DNA of 64,000 nucleotides from contig CAMTUG010000001.1 of assembly GCA_947084965.1 (NCBI GenBank), positions 147,914 through 211,913 of the forward strand. The letters are read 5' to 3'. The position numbers and the translations under genes were made by a program. Source of the DNA: an uncultured Parcubacteria group bacterium. GTDB lineage: Bacteria > Patescibacteriota > Patescibacteriia > UBA9934 > CAMTUG01. The notes under the pieces are model-generated. The model was not told where the DNA came from. It did not search any database and saw only the letters and a list, made by a program, of their open reading frames with translations. Below are positions 4,404 to 63,955 of the stretch, in pieces (the stretch's first letter is position 1; every line of letters begins with the position of its first letter).

Positions 4404-5015
4404 TCAGGTCGTGGCGGGTTCCTCCTTGAGAGGAAGGGGAAGCCAGTCGAACGACAGCCAGCACTCACGATGGGTGCAGACTTCCGGTGGACGGCTCGAG
4501 CTGATCCCAGAGGGGTGCCCATTCCGACAGACCACGATCTGGGTCCCAGGGATCAGCCAGGACAACCCTTCGGTCGTGGCGAAGTGCAGGCGGACGATCC
4601 CGTCTCGCACCGGCTCGACCATGGCGACGATCTTGCCGCTGAGTCGGATGTCGCCCTCGAGGGCGAACCAGGTCGGCACGGCTTCGGCTGAGGGGCGGGG
4701 TTTGCCTGGCTTGAGCTTGCGCCAGCGCAGTCCACCGAGCGATGGGGCGTTGGCGATCTCGATTCCGTGATCGGTGTGCCCGAACCCGAGGCTGATCGTG
4801 AGGGCGAAGCGGAGCGGGACCCCCACACCCTGGAACATCAGGTATCGCCTCGGGCCGTGCGGCAGGGTGGCCCCCTTCGGGATGAAGGGGGAGTCGGTTG
4901 GGGCGACGAGGAGGACAGCGGGAATCGGTGAGGGCATCAAGATCTCCGGGAGATATGTGGTGAATCCACGGTTGATGATGTACCGCAGAGTGTGTGCAGA
5001 GTCAAGCGGAGTCAT
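4404..5015 (-). CDS. hypothetical protein encoded in high-GC islet 1
   Basis: 203-aa ORF with GC-rich codon usage (R/P/G-rich), unlike the flanking genes. Weak FGHTDHG motif that I cannot assign to a family. Confidence 0.4.
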   Translation of the reverse strand: MTPLDSAHTLRYIINRGFTTYLPEILMPSPIPAVLLVAPTDSPFIPKGATLPHGPRRYLMFQGVGVPLRFALTISLGFGHTDHGIEIANAPSLGGLRWRKLKPGKPRPSAEAVPTWFALEGDIRLSGKIVAMVEPVRDGIVRLHFATTEGLSWLIPGTQIVVCRNGHPSGISSSRPPEVCTHRECWLSFDWLPLPLKEEPATT

Positions 5016-7246: not shown

Positions 7247-7573
7247 TTACTTTTCGGCTTTTTTGGAAACGCGAACGGATTTCTTTTCTTCCACTTCGGT
7301 TTTCGGCCCGCTCGATTTGCGCTTTTCGGATTTGGCCGCGCGCTTGGTGGCACGGTTGACGACCGCTTCGGCCTTCTTGCCCATGCGTTCGCCGAACTTC
7401 TCGACGCGGCGGGCGGTGTCCAAAATGGTCTGCTTACCCGTGTAGAACGGGTGGCAAGCGGCACACAATTCGACCGAAATCGCCTGTTTGGTCGATCCGG
7501 TTTCATACTTAGCGCCACAAGCACAGCTGATCGTGGCATCCTCGAAATATTGGGGGTGAATCGTTGCTTTCAT
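7247..7573 (-). CDS. rpmE: 50S ribosomal protein L31 (Zn-ribbon type) with Lys-rich C-terminal extension
   Basis: MKATIHPQYFEDATISCACGAKYETGS...ELCAACHPFYTGKQ is canonical L31. Confidence 0.9.
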   Translation of the reverse strand: MKATIHPQYFEDATISCACGAKYETGSTKQAISVELCAACHPFYTGKQTILDTARRVEKFGERMGKKAEAVVNRATKRAAKSEKRKSSGPKTEVEEKKSVRVSKKAEK

Positions 7574-7599
7574 AGATGTGGCGGTATCCTAGCAGAACC

Positions 7600-8060
7600 C
7601 TCTAAAAAGTTCAAGAACCCTACCAGAAGTGGCGGGTTCTCGAGGAAGAAGTGAGGGAGTGTACGTTACGAATCGTATGAACGTTTGAGTAGCGGTGGAC
7701 ACGCGCATCGTTCATTCGGTTCGGGGACCCGACCGTTGGTGATCCGGTTCGTCCGTGCGCCGTGGTGTTTTCGGCGCTCCGTCCCTGTAGGCACTTCCTT
7801 GCGTTGGCGACCCATTCGCCCTCCTGCTCGTCTCGGCACCGTCGCGATTCGGGTGAGACGTCACAGGCAGCCATGCAGGAACGGTGGACTTCACCGTCAA
7901 CGGTTCAGGCCTTTCAACGACCCTCCCCACCGTTTAGGCACCTCCAAGCGGAGGCTCGCAAACGGCGAGGGTTGAGCACAGAGATTAACAAGTTTCTTTC
8001 GTTCCGTCAAGGGCCGGTAGGTTTGCCCCCAAAATTGAACCTGCCGCTGGGGAAATAGAC
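7600..8060 (-). ncRNA. GC-rich structured non-coding RNA candidate of about 450 nt (RNase P RNA-like?), ending in a hairpin+U-tract terminator just upstream of rpmE
   Basis: No plausible ORF in any frame (translations are R/P-rich junk). G+C is visibly higher than in neighbouring genes. On the minus strand it ends in the stem-loop GAGAACCC-N13-GGGUUCU followed by AACUUUUUAG. Minus-strand stretches weakly resemble bacterial RNase P conserved regions (GUGAAGUCCACCGUUCC; AAGGAAGUGCCUACAGGGA vs consensus AAAGUGCCACAGAAA), but no P4 pairing could be confirmed by eye. Confidence 0.35.
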
Positions 8061-8084
8061 GAAACGAGCTTCTTTGTTTAGAGT

Positions 8085-9113
8085 GTGATCCATATGGGAA
8101 CCCCTGTTGAACTCTTTAATTACGATCTGCCAGAATCGATGATCGCGCAGAAGTCCGTTGAGCCGCGGGATCACTCGCGGTTGATGGTTTTAGATCGGGA
8201 GAGCGGCACGATCGAACATCGAACGTTTTTTGAGATCGTCGATCTGCTTCGTGCTGGCGATGTGTTGGTCTTCAATAATACGAAGGTGTTTAAAGCGCGT
8301 TTAATCGGAGTGACAGACGTTTCGCCACAGGCGAATAAGTCTGTTATTGAACTCTTCTTGCTTCGTGAACGCGAAGGGAAGTGGGAAGCGATGGCGCGGC
8401 CGGGGAAGAAGCTTTCTGTTGGGGATGTGATTGATGTGGGGATCAAAGGGAAGATTACAGAGAAGAAGGAAGACGGAACGGTGATGATTGATTTTGGGAT
8501 GAGTCCTTCTGAAGTCCTTGCGTTTTGTGATGCCCATGGCGAAGTGCCGATTCCGCCATATGTGGTGAAATCAGAGCAGGCGACGGGGAATTATCAGACG
8601 GTATATGCCCGCGAGGTTGGAGCTGTGGCGGCGCCAACGGCAGGATTCCATTTCACCGAGCGTTTGCTCGATGCGCTCCGTGTCAAAGGGGTGCAGATAG
8701 AGTTTATAACGTTACATGTCGGGATCGGGACGTTTCGTCCGGTCAAAACAGCGACGCTCGAAGAGCATGTGATGCACGCTGAGTTTGTGCAGATCGATGC
8801 ACAGACGTCGGAGAGGATTCTGCTTGCGAAAAAAGAAGGGCGTCGGGTTATTGCGGTTGGCACAACAGTTGTGCGCGCACTCGAAGCGACGGGGGGCGAG
8901 CCGACGATGGGAGACGTCAACATTTTTATTATGCCGGGATACACGTTCAAAGTTATCGACGGGTTGATTACCAACTTTCATCTTCCAAAGTCAACGCTCT
9001 TGGCGCTCGTTTCTGCGTTTGCGGGAAGAGATCATGTGATGGCGGCGTACGAAGTTGCTAAAAAAGAAGGGTATCGATTTTATTCTTTTGGGGACGCGAT
9101 GTTTATCGCCTAA
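8085..9113 (+). CDS. queA: S-adenosylmethionine:tRNA ribosyltransferase-isomerase
   Basis: Full-length QueA-like sequence: N-term ELFNYDLPESMIAQ, C-term ...TNFHLPKSTLLALVSAF...GYRFYSFGDAMFI. Confidence 0.85.
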   Translation: MIHMGTPVELFNYDLPESMIAQKSVEPRDHSRLMVLDRESGTIEHRTFFEIVDLLRAGDVLVFNNTKVFKARLIGVTDVSPQANKSVIELFLLREREGKWEAMARPGKKLSVGDVIDVGIKGKITEKKEDGTVMIDFGMSPSEVLAFCDAHGEVPIPPYVVKSEQATGNYQTVYAREVGAVAAPTAGFHFTERLLDALRVKGVQIEFITLHVGIGTFRPVKTATLEEHVMHAEFVQIDAQTSERILLAKKEGRRVIAVGTTVVRALEATGGEPTMGDVNIFIMPGYTFKVIDGLITNFHLPKSTLLALVSAFAGRDHVMAAYEVAKKEGYRFYSFGDAMFIA

Positions 9114-9168: not shown

Positions 9169-9558
9169 CTAGTGGCGGGAACGAAGGTGTCGGTTGAGGC
9201 GGCTGATCCAGAGCGCGTCCGGCATCGTCTGTCGGCCGACGTAGAGGAGGGCCGAGCACTGGGTGTCCGTCAGCAGGTTCTGGACGAGGCCGCGCTGGAT
9301 CAGGCGGTGGATGCGTTCGTAGTCCTCGGGGACTTCGGGGTGCTTGATGTAGTACATCGCCACCCGGAAGACCAGATCTGCATCAGACCCGAAGTTGAAG
9401 TCGTAGCGCTCGTCGATCACCACCTGGTAGGCGGCGGCGAAGAGGCGCTGCTGCAGGAGGAACCGGACGACTTCGGCGGGGTCGAGATCGACCGCCGGTT
9501 CCGGGGCGCGGGCGTGGAACGTCTCGCGCAGGTGAGGATGCGTAGCGGGGGATGCCAT
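9169..9558 (-). CDS. hypothetical protein (high-GC islet 2, downstream gene)
   Basis: 129-aa ORF with GC-rich codon usage. No recognisable motif. Confidence 0.4.
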   Translation of the reverse strand: MASPATHPHLRETFHARAPEPAVDLDPAEVVRFLLQQRLFAAAYQVVIDERYDFNFGSDADLVFRVAMYYIKHPEVPEDYERIHRLIQRGLVQNLLTDTQCSALLYVGRQTMPDALWISRLNRHLRSRH

Positions 9559-9730: not shown

Positions 9731-10084
9731 CTACTTGTTGGCGTCGGCACCGAAGAGGTCGTCATCGATCGCCGTGTTCTTGATCCCGGCGTGGCCGAGG
9801 TCGCCACGGAGGCCGGCGTCCGTCTGGGACAGCAGCTCCAGATCGACGCCGCGGCGGACGAGGGCGACGATTCGGGAGCGGTGATGCCCGGCGTTCTCCT
9901 CGATCAGCGCGCGGATGGCGGCCGTCAGCTCCTCCTTGTCCGGCCTGTACTTGGGGCGCAGACAGCAGTCGGCGGCGGCGGTCAGGCGCTTCTTCCCGAG
10001 GAGGCGCAGGACCTCGCTCGGCGGGGCGCCATTCTGGGGGTTCTGCTTGCGCTGGGGGCGGGGGGACGAGTTGCCGTTGGGCAT
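9731..10084 (-). CDS. hypothetical protein (high-GC islet 2, upstream gene)
   Basis: 117-aa ORF with a basic, low-complexity N-terminus. GC-rich. Confidence 0.4.
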   Translation of the reverse strand: MPNGNSSPRPQRKQNPQNGAPPSEVLRLLGKKRLTAAADCCLRPKYRPDKEELTAAIRALIEENAGHHRSRIVALVRRGVDLELLSQTDAGLRGDLGHAGIKNTAIDDDLFGADANK

Positions 10085-10298
10085 CGATTGACCTCATGTC
10101 TGGGAAGTCGTGGCATCTGTCGGAAGACACTTCCTTCAGGCACACCAACGACCCCGAGAGGGTAGGTCGTCTTGACGAAAAAGTCAATAATCTTTATACT
10201 TCCGCCATAAATCACACAGGTGTGACTAACGGTTTTGGGGCCTGCCCTGGCGTCTGCCAGGGTCCCAATCCCACACACCAACGAAAAAGGAAACTATT

Positions 10299-39931: not shown

Positions 39932-40909
39932 CTAGGGCGACGGCGTGAGGGGTGGAAGTGCGTAGCGGGCGAGCCAGCGCTCAGTCTTGAAGCAGTGGAC
40001 GCTGGCTGCGGTAAGGTCAGGGGCGACCTCGAAGCGGATCTGGTACTGCGATCCCCGCGGCGACCGCTGCTGGTAAGCGAACATCGACACGAGGTCGAGG
40101 ATGGCGAGCACCTCGTCGGCGGTCGGGTTCGTGAGCGAGATCATCCCGAGGTGGTCAGTGCCTTCGGGGAGGTTGCACCCCAGGTGCTCCGGCGCGACGA
40201 TCGGCGTGCTACCTCCGGCGCCGATGATCGCTTCGCGGACGGACTGCGCCATCCAGTGGAGGAGGCCGGTCCGGTGCTTGCGCTCCGCCTGGATCGTCTT
40301 CGAACGATCGATCACGCTGACCGGATTGATCGCTTCGTCGGGGGTCCAGGCACGGACGAAGGGGCACTCGGCGAAGCAGAGGGCGATCGCGCCGTGGCGG
40401 TGTTCGCCCATCCGTCCGAGGCGCGTGCCGATCACCTGGAGCTTCATCTCGAGGATCCCAGGGCCGCGATGCCGCTGCTCCGTGGGGTCGCTTTCCGGGT
40501 TCAGCCAGTAGACGATGTGTGTCCAGAACAGGTCACGCGTGTCGTTCGGTTCGAGGGTGAACTTGCTGGCCCAGGCGCAGTAGTCGGCGTAGCGCTCGAG
40601 GATCGTGACCGCGTGCTTCATGGCGATCCCGCGGGCCTTGCCGGCCGCGAGCCAGGTGTTGTTGATCTGGCGGACCAGGCTCTTGATGACCGACCCTCGC
40701 GTGCTCGTCTGGTTCAGGATGCCCTGGGCGTCGTACTCGGCGGCGACCCGGCGGGCCGTTTCGAGCATCTGCCGTTCGGTCGGCGAGAGGTAGAACCAGT
40801 CACGGCAGAGCCGCTCTTCGACGTCGAGGCGGTGCAGCCAGTGGCGGTCGAGCTCCCAGGGGAGCGGGAGGTGGTTGGGGTGGATCGGAGGGGCGGTCAG
40901 ATCGTTCAT
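39932..40909 (-). CDS. hypothetical protein (high-GC islet 3)
   Basis: 325-aa ORF with GC-rich codon usage. No recognisable motif. Confidence 0.4.
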   Translation of the reverse strand: MNDLTAPPIHPNHLPLPWELDRHWLHRLDVEERLCRDWFYLSPTERQMLETARRVAAEYDAQGILNQTSTRGSVIKSLVRQINNTWLAAGKARGIAMKHAVTILERYADYCAWASKFTLEPNDTRDLFWTHIVYWLNPESDPTEQRHRGPGILEMKLQVIGTRLGRMGEHRHGAIALCFAECPFVRAWTPDEAINPVSVIDRSKTIQAERKHRTGLLHWMAQSVREAIIGAGGSTPIVAPEHLGCNLPEGTDHLGMISLTNPTADEVLAILDLVSMFAYQQRSPRGSQYQIRFEVAPDLTAASVHCFKTERWLARYALPPLTPSP

Positions 40910-41932: not shown

Positions 41933-43099
41933 CTAGCGGGAGGCACGGTCGTTTTTGAGTTCGGCGTTGAGCCGAGCGTAGACGATGAGAGCGATGAGTC
42001 CACCGACGAGGGCCAGGCCCGAAGTGATCAGGAACGGTTGTGGCGCCGTGGCCACGAAGCTCGCACCAACGAATCGTCCGAGGGAAGCGGCGGTGAACCC
42101 CATGGCGAGCGCGGAGCCTTGCAGACCCGGCGTCAGCTTGCTTTGCAGAGCGCCGATGAAGGCGTCGCCAAGGAAGCCGAGGTAGGTCACGAGGACGAGG
42201 ATGGCGAAGATCGCTCCGAGGCTGTGCGCGATGATCGGCAGGAGAAAGACGCCGGCCGAAGCGGCAAGCGCGAAGGTGGTCGCCAGCCCTTCGTTTTTCA
42301 TCTCCATCCGCCGCGAACGGAAGATCACGCTGCCAAAGGTGGCGAGTAAGGTTGCCAGAGCGAGAAGCAATCCGCTCGTTTTGTCTGCGAGTGTGGCGAG
42401 TTGGAGGACCGCTTGCAGGTAGAACCCCAAGAACGAGGCGGCGGTGAAGAATGAGATCCCGAGCGAGAGGAGCAGGGTCGCGGTGATTCTGGGTCCAGAC
42501 GGCGGGGCAAGTTCGTAGTGAGCGATCGGCATCCGTCGGATGATGACGATGAGCGCACCGATGATCACGGCAAGAAGGACGGTGAAGGTGTTGATGCCGA
42601 ACTTCTCGACGATTGCGGTTGGCAGCACCAGCCCCATCACTGAACCGACCAGTCCGTAGCCGATCACCCCGGCGATCCCTTTGGCTCGCTCTTCGGATGT
42701 TGTGTGGTAAGCCATGCCGGCGAGGCAGACGACGACGCCCCCGCCGCCGATCCCGAGGAGGAAGCGGTGGATGATCCATCCGGCGAATCCGCCGAAGAAG
42801 AGTGGGGGGATCGCGAGCAGAAGGAAGATTCCGCCAACGGTCAGGAGTCGCCGTTCGTGAACGCGATCGGCGAGGTAACCGAAGATCGGTACGGACAGGA
42901 ACTGAGCGAGGGCAAAGGCGCCGACGATCAGGCCGACCTCAGCTTCCGACAGTCCCTCGGTTCCGAGGAGGAACGGAGTCAATGCGAAGATCGCCTGGCT
43001 GAGCGCCGTGACGACAAAGGTGTAGTTGCGAACAGCAGCGAGGTATCGCTGACCTTCAGGGGTGTTTGTGTTGTCTTTGAAGAAGCGCATGTTTTCCAC
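41933..43099 (-). CDS. MFS-family transporter
   Basis: 12 predicted TM segments. MFS signature G-x-L-x-D-R-x-G-R-R-like (GYLADRVHERRLL). Confidence 0.75.
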   Translation of the reverse strand: MENMRFFKDNTNTPEGQRYLAAVRNYTFVVTALSQAIFALTPFLLGTEGLSEAEVGLIVGAFALAQFLSVPIFGYLADRVHERRLLTVGGIFLLLAIPPLFFGGFAGWIIHRFLLGIGGGGVVVCLAGMAYHTTSEERAKGIAGVIGYGLVGSVMGLVLPTAIVEKFGINTFTVLLAVIIGALIVIIRRMPIAHYELAPPSGPRITATLLLSLGISFFTAASFLGFYLQAVLQLATLADKTSGLLLALATLLATFGSVIFRSRRMEMKNEGLATTFALAASAGVFLLPIIAHSLGAIFAILVLVTYLGFLGDAFIGALQSKLTPGLQGSALAMGFTAASLGRFVGASFVATAPQPFLITSGLALVGGLIALIVYARLNAELKNDRASR

Positions 43100-44372: not shown

Positions 44373-44810
44373 TCACTTGAAGAGAAAGAACAGGCTGAGG
44401 ACGATCACGATCGTTCCGATGGCGGCGAGGACCCACACCTCGGAAGACCAGGACCGGTAGTGGAGGATGTTGTCGCGAATCTTCTGCCAGTCGAAGGAGC
44501 CGCTGAGGAGCGCCGCGGCGCTCCAGGTCGGCTGGCGCGGCTCCTCCAGGCTTTCGCGATTGAGGACCTTGGTCGCCACCTCGACGGCGTTGAATCGCCT
44601 GTTGCAGTAGGCGATCATCTGCCCCCTCCCGTCGAAGTGGAAGTACTCGATGAGGCGGGGCGAGATGATGATGATCAGCTTCGCGCCGTTGATCTGCGGG
44701 ACGTAGAACCCGCCGGTCGCGCGCGGGTCGGTCGTGTTGATGGGGGCTGGGGAGAGGATGAGGAACGTGCCCTCACCCTGGTCGGTGATGATCAATTCGA
44801 TGTCAGCCAT
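44373..44810 (-). CDS. hypothetical protein with C-terminal TM (high-GC islet 4)
   Basis: 145-aa ORF with GC-rich codon usage and a C-terminal hydrophobic segment. Confidence 0.4.
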   Translation of the reverse strand: MADIELIITDQGEGTFLILSPAPINTTDPRATGGFYVPQINGAKLIIIISPRLIEYFHFDGRGQMIAYCNRRFNAVEVATKVLNRESLEEPRQPTWSAAALLSGSFDWQKIRDNILHYRSWSSEVWVLAAIGTIVIVLSLFFLFK

Positions 44811-51027: not shown

Positions 51028-51103
51028 TGGTGGACCGGACGGGAATCGAACCCGTAATTCCAGGTGTCAAGCCAGGCGGAGTTACCCTTACTCCCACCGG
51101 CCC
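51028..51103 (-). tRNA. tRNA with CCA encoded; anticodon loop CUUGACA (apparent anticodon UGA, Ser) on a class-I scaffold; identity uncertain
   Basis: Minus-strand read GGGCCGG-UG-GGAG-UAAGGGUAA-CUCC-G-CCUGG-CUUGACA-CCUGG-AAUU-ACGGG-UUCGAUU-CCCGU-CCGGUCC-A-CCA. Acceptor, D and T arms are canonical (GTTCGATTCC T-loop). The anticodon stem has a central U.U mismatch and position 37 is C. Confidence 0.6.
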
Positions 51104-62066: not shown

Positions 62067-62890
62067 CTTCGAAGGCCCCACCGAGTGAGGTGAGGCCTGT
62101 GGTCGCGGACGCGGTCGTGCGTCGTCAGTGCTCGAGGACCCCCTCGCCCGTTTCTGGTCCTTGCCAGATCTGCCACCCTGGCATCCGTTTGCGCACGATC
62201 GGCCGTGCGACGTCCTTTTTCCCGTAGCCGGGAAAGGATTGTGGAGACGAATCGGGAGCGGCGGCTCCGTTGTCTCCGAAGCGGATGCGCGGGGTGGGGA
62301 TTCGGGGCGGACTGGCGGCGAGCATGACGACCTCTTAATGGCCACTTCAGACAGGAACTGTGGCCTCACCATGGGTCGAGATGACCCAATGGGACCTGAC
62401 AAGGTAGCAAGGAATTTCGGCCGTGTCAAGCTTTCGTGACAGGAAAAGTGAAAAATTAAAGGATATAAAGGAGAAAAAATGCAATCGTGTTTGGAGATAT
62501 TGACAATCTCCCTTTAATCGTGATAGCTTCATCGGTCCCGCAAGGGGCACCGCGTTTGGCCTTAAATCCAAACGTTGGGGAGCTCAAGGCCCGCCGCAAG
62601 GCGGGTTTTGTGTTGAAAAGCAAAAGCCTCTGCTGGGGAGAACAGAGGTTTTTGCATTCTCAGAGACAACGAAGTGGTCTTCGTTCTCTCATTCGAGCCG
62701 CCGTTTGAAGTGATCAGTGGTACCGGCTTCTGAAGCCGGTACCAGGACTGGATGTTTATGATTTTTCCTCCACACAACGCGCGAGTACTTGTTACCGGCT
62801 CCGGGAGCCGGTAACGGGTGATTCGTGCATTCTGTGGAGGAGGGGACGAGCCGTAGTGCCCGTCCCGCTCCAACGTGGGTGTGGTCTTGT

Positions 62891-63955
62891 TCAGTTCACG
62901 AGGGCCTCCTCGACTTTCGACGCCGAGATGGACACCTTGGTCATCCACTCGGCACCGAGCTTCGCCTTCAGCACCGCCTTGAGGTCCGCCACCGTCGTCG
63001 GCTTGATGAGGCCGAAGTTGACGATGCCGAGCTCCTCGAGGAGGGTCACGACCTTGCGGACCTTGCGGCCGGAGTCGAGCTTGCTCCAGGGGAACATGAT
63101 CGTCTGCGCCTTGGGGGCCTCGACGACCACTTCGGGGGTCGGGGGTTCGACGATCGGCTCCGGCGCGATCTCCTCGGCCTCGGTCTGCACCTCCTCGGTG
63201 ATGGCCTCGACCTCGTCGGTCGGGGCCGGGTTGGGGTTGATCTCCGGCTCGGGCGCCGGCGCCTGCTCCGCGGCCGGCGGGGCGTCGGTGGCCTCGTTCG
63301 CCGCGGCCGGGGCGTTGTTCTCGACGGTCGGGGCCGCGACCTTCTGGTCGTAGTACCCGGCAGCCTTGCGGATGCCGTGGCACTCCTGGCAGAAGATCGG
63401 CTTGCTCTTGTCGAGCTTGTTTTTCGACGCCGCCAGCCCCCCGCAGTCGCTGCAGTGGTAGTGGAAGTGCTGCTTGCGATCGTAGGTGCAGCACTTGCGG
63501 TAGTCCTGCGTCGGCGGGATCATCTGCTCGAACGACCACGGGACCGGCGCGGGGATCTTCTTCACCGTGCGCACGTACTCGCACTTCGCCCACTCCGCCT
63601 CGAGCTCGGCCATTCGCTCCTGCCGGGCCTCCTCGTAGTCGTCCTCGTAGTCCTCCAGCTCCTCCACGGTGTACTGGTGGACCTCACCGCCGTCGAACCC
63701 CTGCCACGGGTCCTCGTCCGCCTCGAGCACGATCGTGATCGTCGTGCGGTCGAAGTCCTCGCTGTCGTCGTCCCACTTCGACTGCACGTAGGTGATGGAC
63801 TCGATCTCGTCCACCTCGTCCTCCGTGCTCGGCTCGCGGTTCACGGCGTCGCGGATCCGCAGGCCGCCGAGGGTGTTGTCCATGTCCGCCGGGTCGAGGT
63901 TGTGGGCCTCGAGGTAGGCGATCATGGCCTGGGACAGCTTGGGGCGGCGGGCCAC
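62891..63955 (-). CDS. hypothetical acidic protein with Cys/His cluster (high-GC islet 5); may continue beyond the window
   Basis: Long GC-rich ORF. D/E-rich N-half, CCTYDRKQHFHYHCSDCGG...CQECHG metal-binding-like cluster, A/P/E-rich linker. Confidence 0.45.
   Translation of the reverse strand: MARRPKLSQAMIAYLEAHNLDPADMDNTLGGLRIRDAVNREPSTEDEVDEIESITYVQSKWDDDSEDFDRTTITIVLEADEDPWQGFDGGEVHQYTVEELEDYEDDYEEARQERMAELEAEWAKCEYVRTVKKIPAPVPWSFEQMIPPTQDYRKCCTYDRKQHFHYHCSDCGGLAASKNKLDKSKPIFCQECHGIRKAAGYYDQKVAAPTVENNAPAAANEATDAPPAAEQAPAPEPEINPNPAPTDEVEAITEEVQTEAEEIAPEPIVEPPTPEVVVEAPKAQTIMFPWSKLDSGRKVRKVVTLLEELGIVNFGLIKPTTVADLKAVLKAKLGAEWMTKVSISASKVEEALVN

Follow-up and report, generated by a model that had tools for sequence, protein, structure and literature searches.

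Background

Among described systems, the element reported here invites comparison with the trans-encoded small RNAs (sRNAs) of Firmicutes such as RsaE/RoxS and with leaders of ribosomal protein L31 transcripts, which exist in other phyla (the L31 families of Rfam). Bacteria of the Candidate Phyla Radiation (CPR) are uncultured and have tiny, compact genomes, and to our knowledge no regulatory RNA has been experimentally characterised in CPR bacteria or Patescibacteria generally. Our literature search on structured RNA, RNase P and small RNA in CPR, Patescibacteria and Uhrbacteria returned nothing relevant, and we found no regulatory RNA described for Uhrbacteria. Here we describe a candidate non-coding RNA (ncRNA) in a 64-kb stretch of DNA from a Candidatus Uhrbacteria genome (CPR/Patescibacteria; the window, always at its full length), located in the gap between rpmE and queA. 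Judging from the sequence, this gap on balance probably holds a separate ncRNA gene on the minus strand, lineage-restricted, undescribed and read in the same sense as rpmE. A preliminary description had proposed a structured, non-coding RNA with its own terminator on the minus strand of this gap; that general proposal is borne out, and we add to it a candidate promoter at the far end.

Candidate promoter and terminator

The gap (7574-8093) comprises 511-520 nt without a gene and is probably, as first proposed, the longest gene-free stretch in the window, the runner-up being ~494 nt at 62067-62560. Its reported enrichment in guanine and cytosine (GC) is real, though moderate at ~9 points over the window: GC content is 56.6% in 7574-8084 and 61.9-62.5% in the core (7674-7985), compared with 53.0% in the window. 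The features identified in and around the gap are listed in Table 1.

Table 1. Positions of the features of the rpmE-queA region in the window
Feature	Position	Strand	Description and basis
rpmE, ribosomal protein L31	7247-7573	-	Open reading frame of 108 amino acids with Lys-rich C-terminal tail; Pfam PF01197 on the identical public gene
rpmE promoter	7586-7614	-	-35 TTGAAC 7614-7609; T-rich spacer ending TGC; -10 TAGGAT 7591-7586; pattern match
Intrinsic-terminator-like hairpin	7604-7643	-	Stem 7611-7643, 14 bp, one bulge; followed by AC and UUUUU (U5, 7608-7604)
Candidate ncRNA	7604-7976	-	~373 nt, ~61% GC; fold z-score, no coding signal, no Rfam family
Pyrimidine-rich tract	7644-7659	-	CUCCCUCACUUCUUCC; 7644-7654 unpaired in the minimum free energy model, abutting the 5' side of the terminator
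Small hairpin H2	7883-7895	-	GGUG-AAGUC-CACC, the string earlier called RNase P-like; sequence kept in relative L060
5' hairpin H1	7925-7970	-	18 consensus pairs, GCUU loop; RNAalifold on the window and L060
Promoter-like element of the candidate RNA	7982-8010	-	CTTGACG-N14-TGT-TAATCT; pattern match
queA promoter-like element	8056-8084	+	TAGACG-N17-TAGAGT; predicted from the sequence
queA, tRNA preQ1(34) S-adenosylmethionine ribosyltransferase-isomerase	8094-9113	+	Open reading frame, ATG at 8094; homologues and PF02547

The candidate RNA appears to have a promoter of its own. The predicted -35 box (TTGACG, 8010-8005) and -10 box (TAATCT, 7987-7982) are separated by a 17-nt spacer that ends in TGT, as in an extended -10 element, and the predicted start lies near 7976. 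The pattern TTGAY-N15-TGNTANNNT matches exactly at this site and occurs 3 times in the 64 kb on both strands, with 0.12 expected, and TTG-N17-TGNTANNNT has 4 matches in the window, the rpmE promoter among them. The pattern CTTGAC-N18-TANNNT likewise occurs 3 times in the window against 0.27 expected, at the candidate promoter, at the rpsB promoter and at a site in the second non-coding islet. Overall, exact matches to such local promoter patterns are very rare, 3-4 where 0.1-0.9 were expected, and those at rpmE and rpsB mark genuine gene starts. At the corresponding locus of relatives (individual loci are given by number, such as L060, from assembly GCA_964588955.1), the element CTTGAC(A/G)-N17-TAnnnT was found at the queA-proximal end and pointing towards rpmE in all five loci that carry an insert, including L060, L064, L057 and L061.

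At the other end, the unit seems to be closed by an intrinsic terminator. The hairpin followed by UUUUU that had been reported upstream of the L31 start is present, with the U-run ending 30 nt from the rpmE ATG and not the ~25 nt first given; the hairpin has a predicted energy of -19.9 kcal/mol and a z-score of -4.9. Terminator hairpins of -20 to -24 kcal/mol were identified in four lineages (window, L060, L064 and L057), in which the outer 10 pairs are 95% paired and 3 of the 10 have changed on both sides, as in CGAGAACCC/GGGUUCUUG of the window compared with CAAGGACCC/GGGUCCUUG of L060. In slid control alignments, pairing amounts to 20-65%; the score of the true alignment is matched by 15 of 500 shuffles.

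Half of this terminator consists of rpmE promoter sequence: the 3' arm coincides with the surroundings of the -35 box, and the T-rich promoter spacer supplies the U-run. The rpmE promoter, CCTTGAWC-(A)TTTTT...TGNTANNNT (also written CCTTGAWC-(A)TTTTT...TGnTAnnnT), is conserved in seven lineages, with or without an insert in the gap.

Predicted structure

In the minimum free energy model, the candidate RNA has the long 5' hairpin H1 first, then a multibranched body that GGGAGG/CUCCCU closes, then a pyrimidine tract and last the terminator. The minus strand of 7604-7976 folds at -157.8 kcal/mol with a z-score of -4.25 against dinucleotide shuffles, which also served for the units of relatives, whereas the plus strand reaches -1.32. 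Among the corresponding units of relatives, the z-score is extreme in L060 (-7.68) and amounts to -4.26 in L064, -4.92 in L057 and -2.58 in L061, the L061 unit being truncated. The structure excess is specific to the minus strand in the window; L060 and L057 score alike on both strands.

In the RNAalifold model of the two sequences from the window and L060, all 18 pairs of H1 are kept, 4 of them by two-sided and 6 by one-sided changes, and L064 has a comparable 18-bp hairpin at an equal offset. The sequence of H2, GUCCACCGUU, is common to the window and L060 (offset 92 compared with 95); its stem is invariant and thus silent on pairing. The unpaired part of the pyrimidine-rich tract is an 11-nt stretch, UCACUUCUUCC, and a C/U-rich unpaired tract was identified in the same place, directly 5' of the terminator, in L060 (CACCUUCUCCUUC), L057 (AGCUUCUCCUUC) and L064 (AAUCUCUUUCUC), all three of which share the order of parts seen in the window.

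The candidate RNA also contains a 26-nt direct repeat (7783-7808 and 7930-7955, 73% identical; GCCAACGCAAGGAAGUGCCUACAGGG and GCCUCCGCUUGGAGGUGCCUAAACGG on the minus strand). Both copies include GGARGUGCCU, which is found in H1 of L060 as well, and the repeat could be a recognition motif or due to chance.

Known RNA families

We searched Rfam 15 (4227 families) at the gathering score over the whole window and at E<=10 over 7400-8250 (851 nt), on both strands. At the gathering score, the sole match was a tRNA elsewhere in the window. In 7400-8250, no model of RNase P, tmRNA, 6S, SRP, riboswitches or L31 leaders matched, and we obtained noise only, namely Pseudomon-Rho (21 bits) and a CRISPR repeat (CRISPR-DR15, 16 bits). 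The units of four relatives, scanned at E<=1, gave no RNase P or other family and again only noise; mir-287 was among the noise matches of these scans of gap and units. ARAGORN found no tmRNA, its only result being tRNA-Ser at 51028-51103. The scan for RNase P, tmRNA, 6S, SRP and riboswitches that the preliminary description had proposed as a check thus yielded no relevant match on either strand.

Occurrence in relatives

The prfA-rpmE arrangement with divergent queA is conserved in Uhrbacteria, and the gap between rpmE and queA is hypervariable. It measures 53-230 nt in about ten relatives, a length that the rpmE and queA core promoters together explain, and the window has ~430 extra nt between these two promoters (~7613-8046). 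Gene-free, GC-rich stretches of 300-520 nt were identified at this site in the window, L060, L064 and L061/L062, and L057 has a GC-rich gene-free stretch between an inserted gene and rpmE; in all, four or five related Uhrbacteria show the architecture of the window unit here. Protein genes occupy the gap in L005, L008, L040, L057 and L065. Across Uhrbacteria, this gap is a hot spot for insertions. The inserted genes (L005/L043/L044, L008, L040, L057 and L065) differ from one another, encode 195-301 amino acids in either orientation and have no Pfam annotation.

Global alignment of the window with L060 gave a z-score of 3.2 for the whole body and 4.75-5.4 for the first 130 nt, where none of 1000 and none of 500 shuffles attained the observed score. 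In these sequence comparisons, only the L060 RNA is demonstrably homologous, over its first 130 nt. L064 aligned with a z-score of ~2 against both the window and L060 and is a tentative second homologue. Searches of the gap with blastn and nhmmer against all fetched loci and the window returned nothing. Two motif patterns matched at least 120 and 67 stretches of viral contigs, which we take as chance because model R1 gave no match above noise on 187 fetched loci.

Weighing a separate RNA gene

The case for a separate ncRNA gene in the gap is made by a promoter that recurs in all insert-bearing loci, a terminator with compensated pairs, a strand-specific fold, the partly covarying H1, the homology of the 5' part to L060, the lack of coding signal and an rpmE promoter conserved downstream of the unit. 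A recurrent promoter-to-terminator unit in such compact genomes suggests selection, and the candidate RNA is presumably transcribed and stable.

Several observations weigh against it. The two closest relatives, L055 (QueA 71% identical, gap of 74 nt) and L059 (68%, 122 nt), are without the element, so it would be dispensable, and the candidate family would also be fast-evolving. Clear homology is confined to L060, with L064 as a tentative second case: when a covariance model was built from the first 130 nt, its best same-strand match outside the training set lay exactly at the 5' end of the L064 unit, but at 12.6 bits this is at noise level (scores of 12-15 bits arise in 1.7 Mb of unrelated DNA) and only its position is informative. 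L057 and L061 have no detectable homology to the window RNA, and local Smith-Waterman alignments among the five RNA bodies were no better than shuffles, the bodies being unalignable; the L057 and L061 units may be analogous, or they may be unrelated sequences that entered a hot spot where protein genes insert as well. The compensatory pairs of H1 rest on two sequences and the 3 of 10 in the terminator on four. The fold z-score of the window RNA lies within the top ~1-2% of arbitrary windows, which is notable and not extreme (128 arbitrary 373-nt windows of the same sequence have a mean of -0.68, a standard deviation of 1.47 and a 1% quantile of -4.0). A simple terminator scan did not call the hairpin because of its bulge, and the U-run, which belongs to the conserved rpmE promoter, is set 2-3 nt off the stem, so that the efficiency of termination is uncertain. 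The genome is largely without Shine-Dalgarno sequences, and no target was singled out for the pyrimidine tract.

Alternative explanations

The ~430-nt insert might instead be a non-functional remnant, that is, foreign or gene-derived DNA decaying at the hot spot, with a relic promoter and with hairpins incidental to its GC content. The hypervariability of the gap, which is short in about ten relatives and filled by protein genes in five loci, is compatible with this, as are the unalignable bodies of the five units and the lack of the element in the closest relatives, and the strongly negative z-scores of L060 and L057 on both strands would suit DNA palindromes equally well. We nevertheless consider a remnant unlikely. 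Decayed DNA in compact CPR genomes is not expected to retain an exact promoter, a compensated terminator and a covarying H1 in several lineages, the structure excess of the window is confined to one strand (-4.25 compared with -1.32), and the translated insert resembles no inserted gene and no other locus. Specifically, a pseudogene origin was rejected after a tblastx comparison of the gap with all fetched loci, inserted genes included, gave noise; the best such match (E = 3.6e-4) consisted of short high-scoring segment pairs with a high-GC Coriobacteriaceae locus. There is likewise no sign of a miniature inverted-repeat transposable element or other mobile repeat: the border repeats are 10 nt long, at chance level and made of promoter parts, and the window has no second copy. 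Phage and plasmid collections contained no match to the element. Even if the insert were junk, it would still show that insertions favour this gap in the clade.

That the element is a long cis-regulatory leader of rpmE, as the preliminary description had suggested among its alternatives, is a weaker proposition still. The promoter at 8010-7982 would then be a distal rpmE promoter and the hairpin with U5 an attenuator, serving for example L31 autoregulation or zinc sensing. The element does lie directly upstream of rpmE on the same strand, its terminator immediately precedes the gene, and L31 leaders are known in other phyla. Against this, the ancestral rpmE promoter, kept in relatives without an insert, overlaps and follows the terminator, so rpmE would be independent of read-through, and in most relatives the gap is too short for a leader. 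At E<=10, neither a leader nor a riboswitch model of Rfam matched, we saw no alternative antiterminator pairing, and the sequence is too variable for a conserved protein-binding site. With the conserved rpmE promoter lying downstream of the element, we regard a leader as improbable.

A small protein, either the 84-amino-acid open reading frame (ORF) at 7620-7874 (minus strand) or the 98-amino-acid ORF at 7762-8058 (plus strand), is highly improbable. ORFs of 57-98 amino acids are present in four frames of the gap, but their GC content is flat over the three codon positions, and whichever frame of an ORF is read, its codon log-odds are negative and do not stand out from those of the other frames. 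The flanking genes, by contrast, reach +0.27 to +0.47 in the coding frame and fall clearly below zero in the others. These ORFs are Arg/Pro-rich, as chance predicts for GC-rich DNA, and Pfam has no match in the gap. The homologous L060 region has no matching ORF, alignment indels are not multiples of three, the units have no ORF in common, and tblastx among them showed no translated similarity. In run ERR3478686, a 3.5-kb contig is identical to this part of the window, and its public gene call leaves the rpmE-queA gap empty. The earlier judgement that no frame gives a believable protein is thereby upheld.

Finally, RNase P RNA (RF00010/RF00011), or else tmRNA, with which the ~370-nt size and the GC-rich structure would be compatible, can practically be dismissed, as Rfam 15 gave no match to either in window, gap and units of relatives, ARAGORN found no tmRNA, and the element is missing at this locus in the closest relatives. 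The RNase P-like strings GUGAAGUCCACCGUUCC and AAGGAAGUGCCUACAGGGA noted earlier are indeed present on the minus strand. The string GAAGUCCACC, which resembles CR-I (GAAAGUCCGGG), is the loop and 3' arm of H2: its AAGUCC sits in the hairpin loop and becomes CACGUCC in L060, where the CR-I-like string is lost and the sequence reads GGCACGUCCACC. By eye, we found no complement to AAG(U)CCACC downstream (7604-7880) that could serve as P4 partner in a pseudoknot. Absence at the locus in most relatives and an unconserved sequence are the opposite of what RNase P RNA shows, and this result clears a tempting mis-annotation as rnpB or ssrA.

Proposed mode of action

If the gap holds an ncRNA gene, transcription would start near 7976, driven by an extended -10 promoter of the sigma-70 type (8010-7982), and yield a GC-rich, highly paired RNA of ~373 nt that would stop at the 14-bp hairpin and U5 (7643-7604). 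Only part of the Uhrbacteria would have acquired the element, which lies between two divergent promoters, those of rpmE and queA; its terminator would have been recruited from the pre-existing rpmE promoter region, with the 3' arm and the U-run older than the insert. rpmE would retain a downstream promoter of its own, so the RNA would not be its leader. Polymerases stopping at 7604-7608 would cover the rpmE -35 box and spacer, and transcription of the RNA could therefore dampen rpmE initiation by occlusion.

We infer a trans-acting role for the candidate RNA, either in regulation or in protein binding, and the single-stranded pyrimidine tract that recurs in relatives would be its likeliest contact surface. 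A duplex search with the 23-nt stretch 7646-7668, which holds most of this tract, against 41 gene starts gave no outlier target; the best duplex had -17.7 kcal/mol, and shuffled probes gave -15.9 +/- 2.1. Targeting of the classic anti-Shine-Dalgarno kind is doubtful because only 9 of 38 genes have a Shine-Dalgarno-like 4-mer and queA appears near-leaderless. The predicted queA -10 box stops 9 nt before the ATG, so its mRNA would be nearly leaderless, and L059 has the same layout (TAGACG-N17-TAGACT, 9 nt, ATG). The -10 spacing of queA in the window and L059 suggests leaderless or near-leaderless mRNAs. The 38 gene starts surveyed in the window (for example 7573, 8094 and 10299) also strongly favour T at -1/-2 of the ATG.

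Taken further, the candidate could be the founding member of an undescribed family of ~300-390 nt ncRNAs in a subset of Uhrbacteria, with a terminator fused to the rpmE promoter, a possible coupling by occlusion, and action in trans through the pyrimidine tract or as a scaffold; we offer this fuller scheme as a tentative possibility. It would be an early documented, sequence-based candidate sRNA family in CPR bacteria with an unusual terminator-promoter fusion.

Neighbouring genes and other features of the window

The nearest homologues of the QueA, L31 and RF1 proteins of the window all come from Uhrbacteria and Patescibacteria assemblies. A public 476-kb contig carries the window's own QueA, and scans of genomes and metagenomes, together with a search of 5.8 billion proteins, found no QueA above 71% identity. 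Locally, the minus strand carries prmC-prfA-rpmE, and the plus strand, read divergently, carries queA, a small gene and rpsB-tsf. The Lys/Glu-rich tail of L31 extends ~40 amino acids past the usual protein of ~70 amino acids. In L057 (1793-1996), the public call shortens rpmE to 67 amino acids, and the true start lies at ~2140.

The rpsB promoter, CTTGACG-N17-TATACT, lies at 10171-10200 (plus strand), ~90 nt upstream of the ATG, and its pattern also matches upstream of this gene in most relatives whose fetched stretch includes it (L055, L057 and L059-L063 are examples). Several of them have a divergent promoter for the small upstream gene that overlaps the rpsB promoter. The ~90-nt 5' untranslated region of rpsB could hold an S2 leader.

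The preliminary description had also allowed for another high-GC islet without a gene, which fits the window in part: most GC islets are protein genes with high third-position GC, and the islet at 62067-62560 is non-coding alike. This second gene-free, GC-rich islet has a promoter-like CTTGACA-N17-TACCTT at 62401-62430 (minus strand), and its minus strand from 62394 to 62060 has a fold z-score of -5.18 and closes with a hairpin of 10 bp and a weak U-run. It gave no Rfam match at E<=5, has no coding signal and shows no sequence relation to the RNA at 7.6-8.0 kb; it is possibly another orphan ncRNA gene. The remaining high-GC islets are protein ORFs, all on the minus strand (4404-5015, 9169-9558, 9731-10084, 39932-40909, 41933-43099, 44373-44810 and 62891-63955), with third-position GC of 0.77-0.97, compared with 0.55-0.66 in housekeeping genes, and a clear frame contrast. 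ORF 9169-9558, the one scanned, had no Pfam match. These ORFs form a compositionally distinct gene class, perhaps an acquired one.

Comparison with known systems

With RNase P RNA, the candidate shares a similar length, a GC-rich, multi-helix architecture and the AAGUCC string, but differs in having no model match at E<=10, no P4 pairing and neither presence nor sequence conserved among relatives. Ribosomal protein leaders, including the L31 families of Rfam, resemble it in lying upstream of rpmE on the same strand with a terminator-like hairpin at the end; in our locus, however, a conserved rpmE promoter is placed between the element and the rpmE coding sequence, no leader model matched, and most relatives lack the element. 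Like raiA, ROOL, OLE, GOLLD and RNAs of the 6S/Ms1 type, the candidate occupies a long gene-free stretch with GC content above its surroundings and strong predicted structure. It matches none of their models, its family would be much narrower, with 2-3 demonstrable members, and its predicted fold does not form one rod with a central bubble.

Compared with RsaE/RoxS, the candidate is three to four times longer (~370 compared with ~100 nt) and has no relation to them in sequence or in Rfam; its host is nearly without Shine-Dalgarno sequences, which makes anti-Shine-Dalgarno targeting doubtful, and the duplex search found no target. Its predicted organisation is nonetheless that of such trans-encoded sRNAs: a stand-alone intergenic unit with a sigma-70-type promoter and a Rho-independent-type terminator, non-coding, confined to a narrow lineage and carrying a single-stranded pyrimidine tract beside the terminator.

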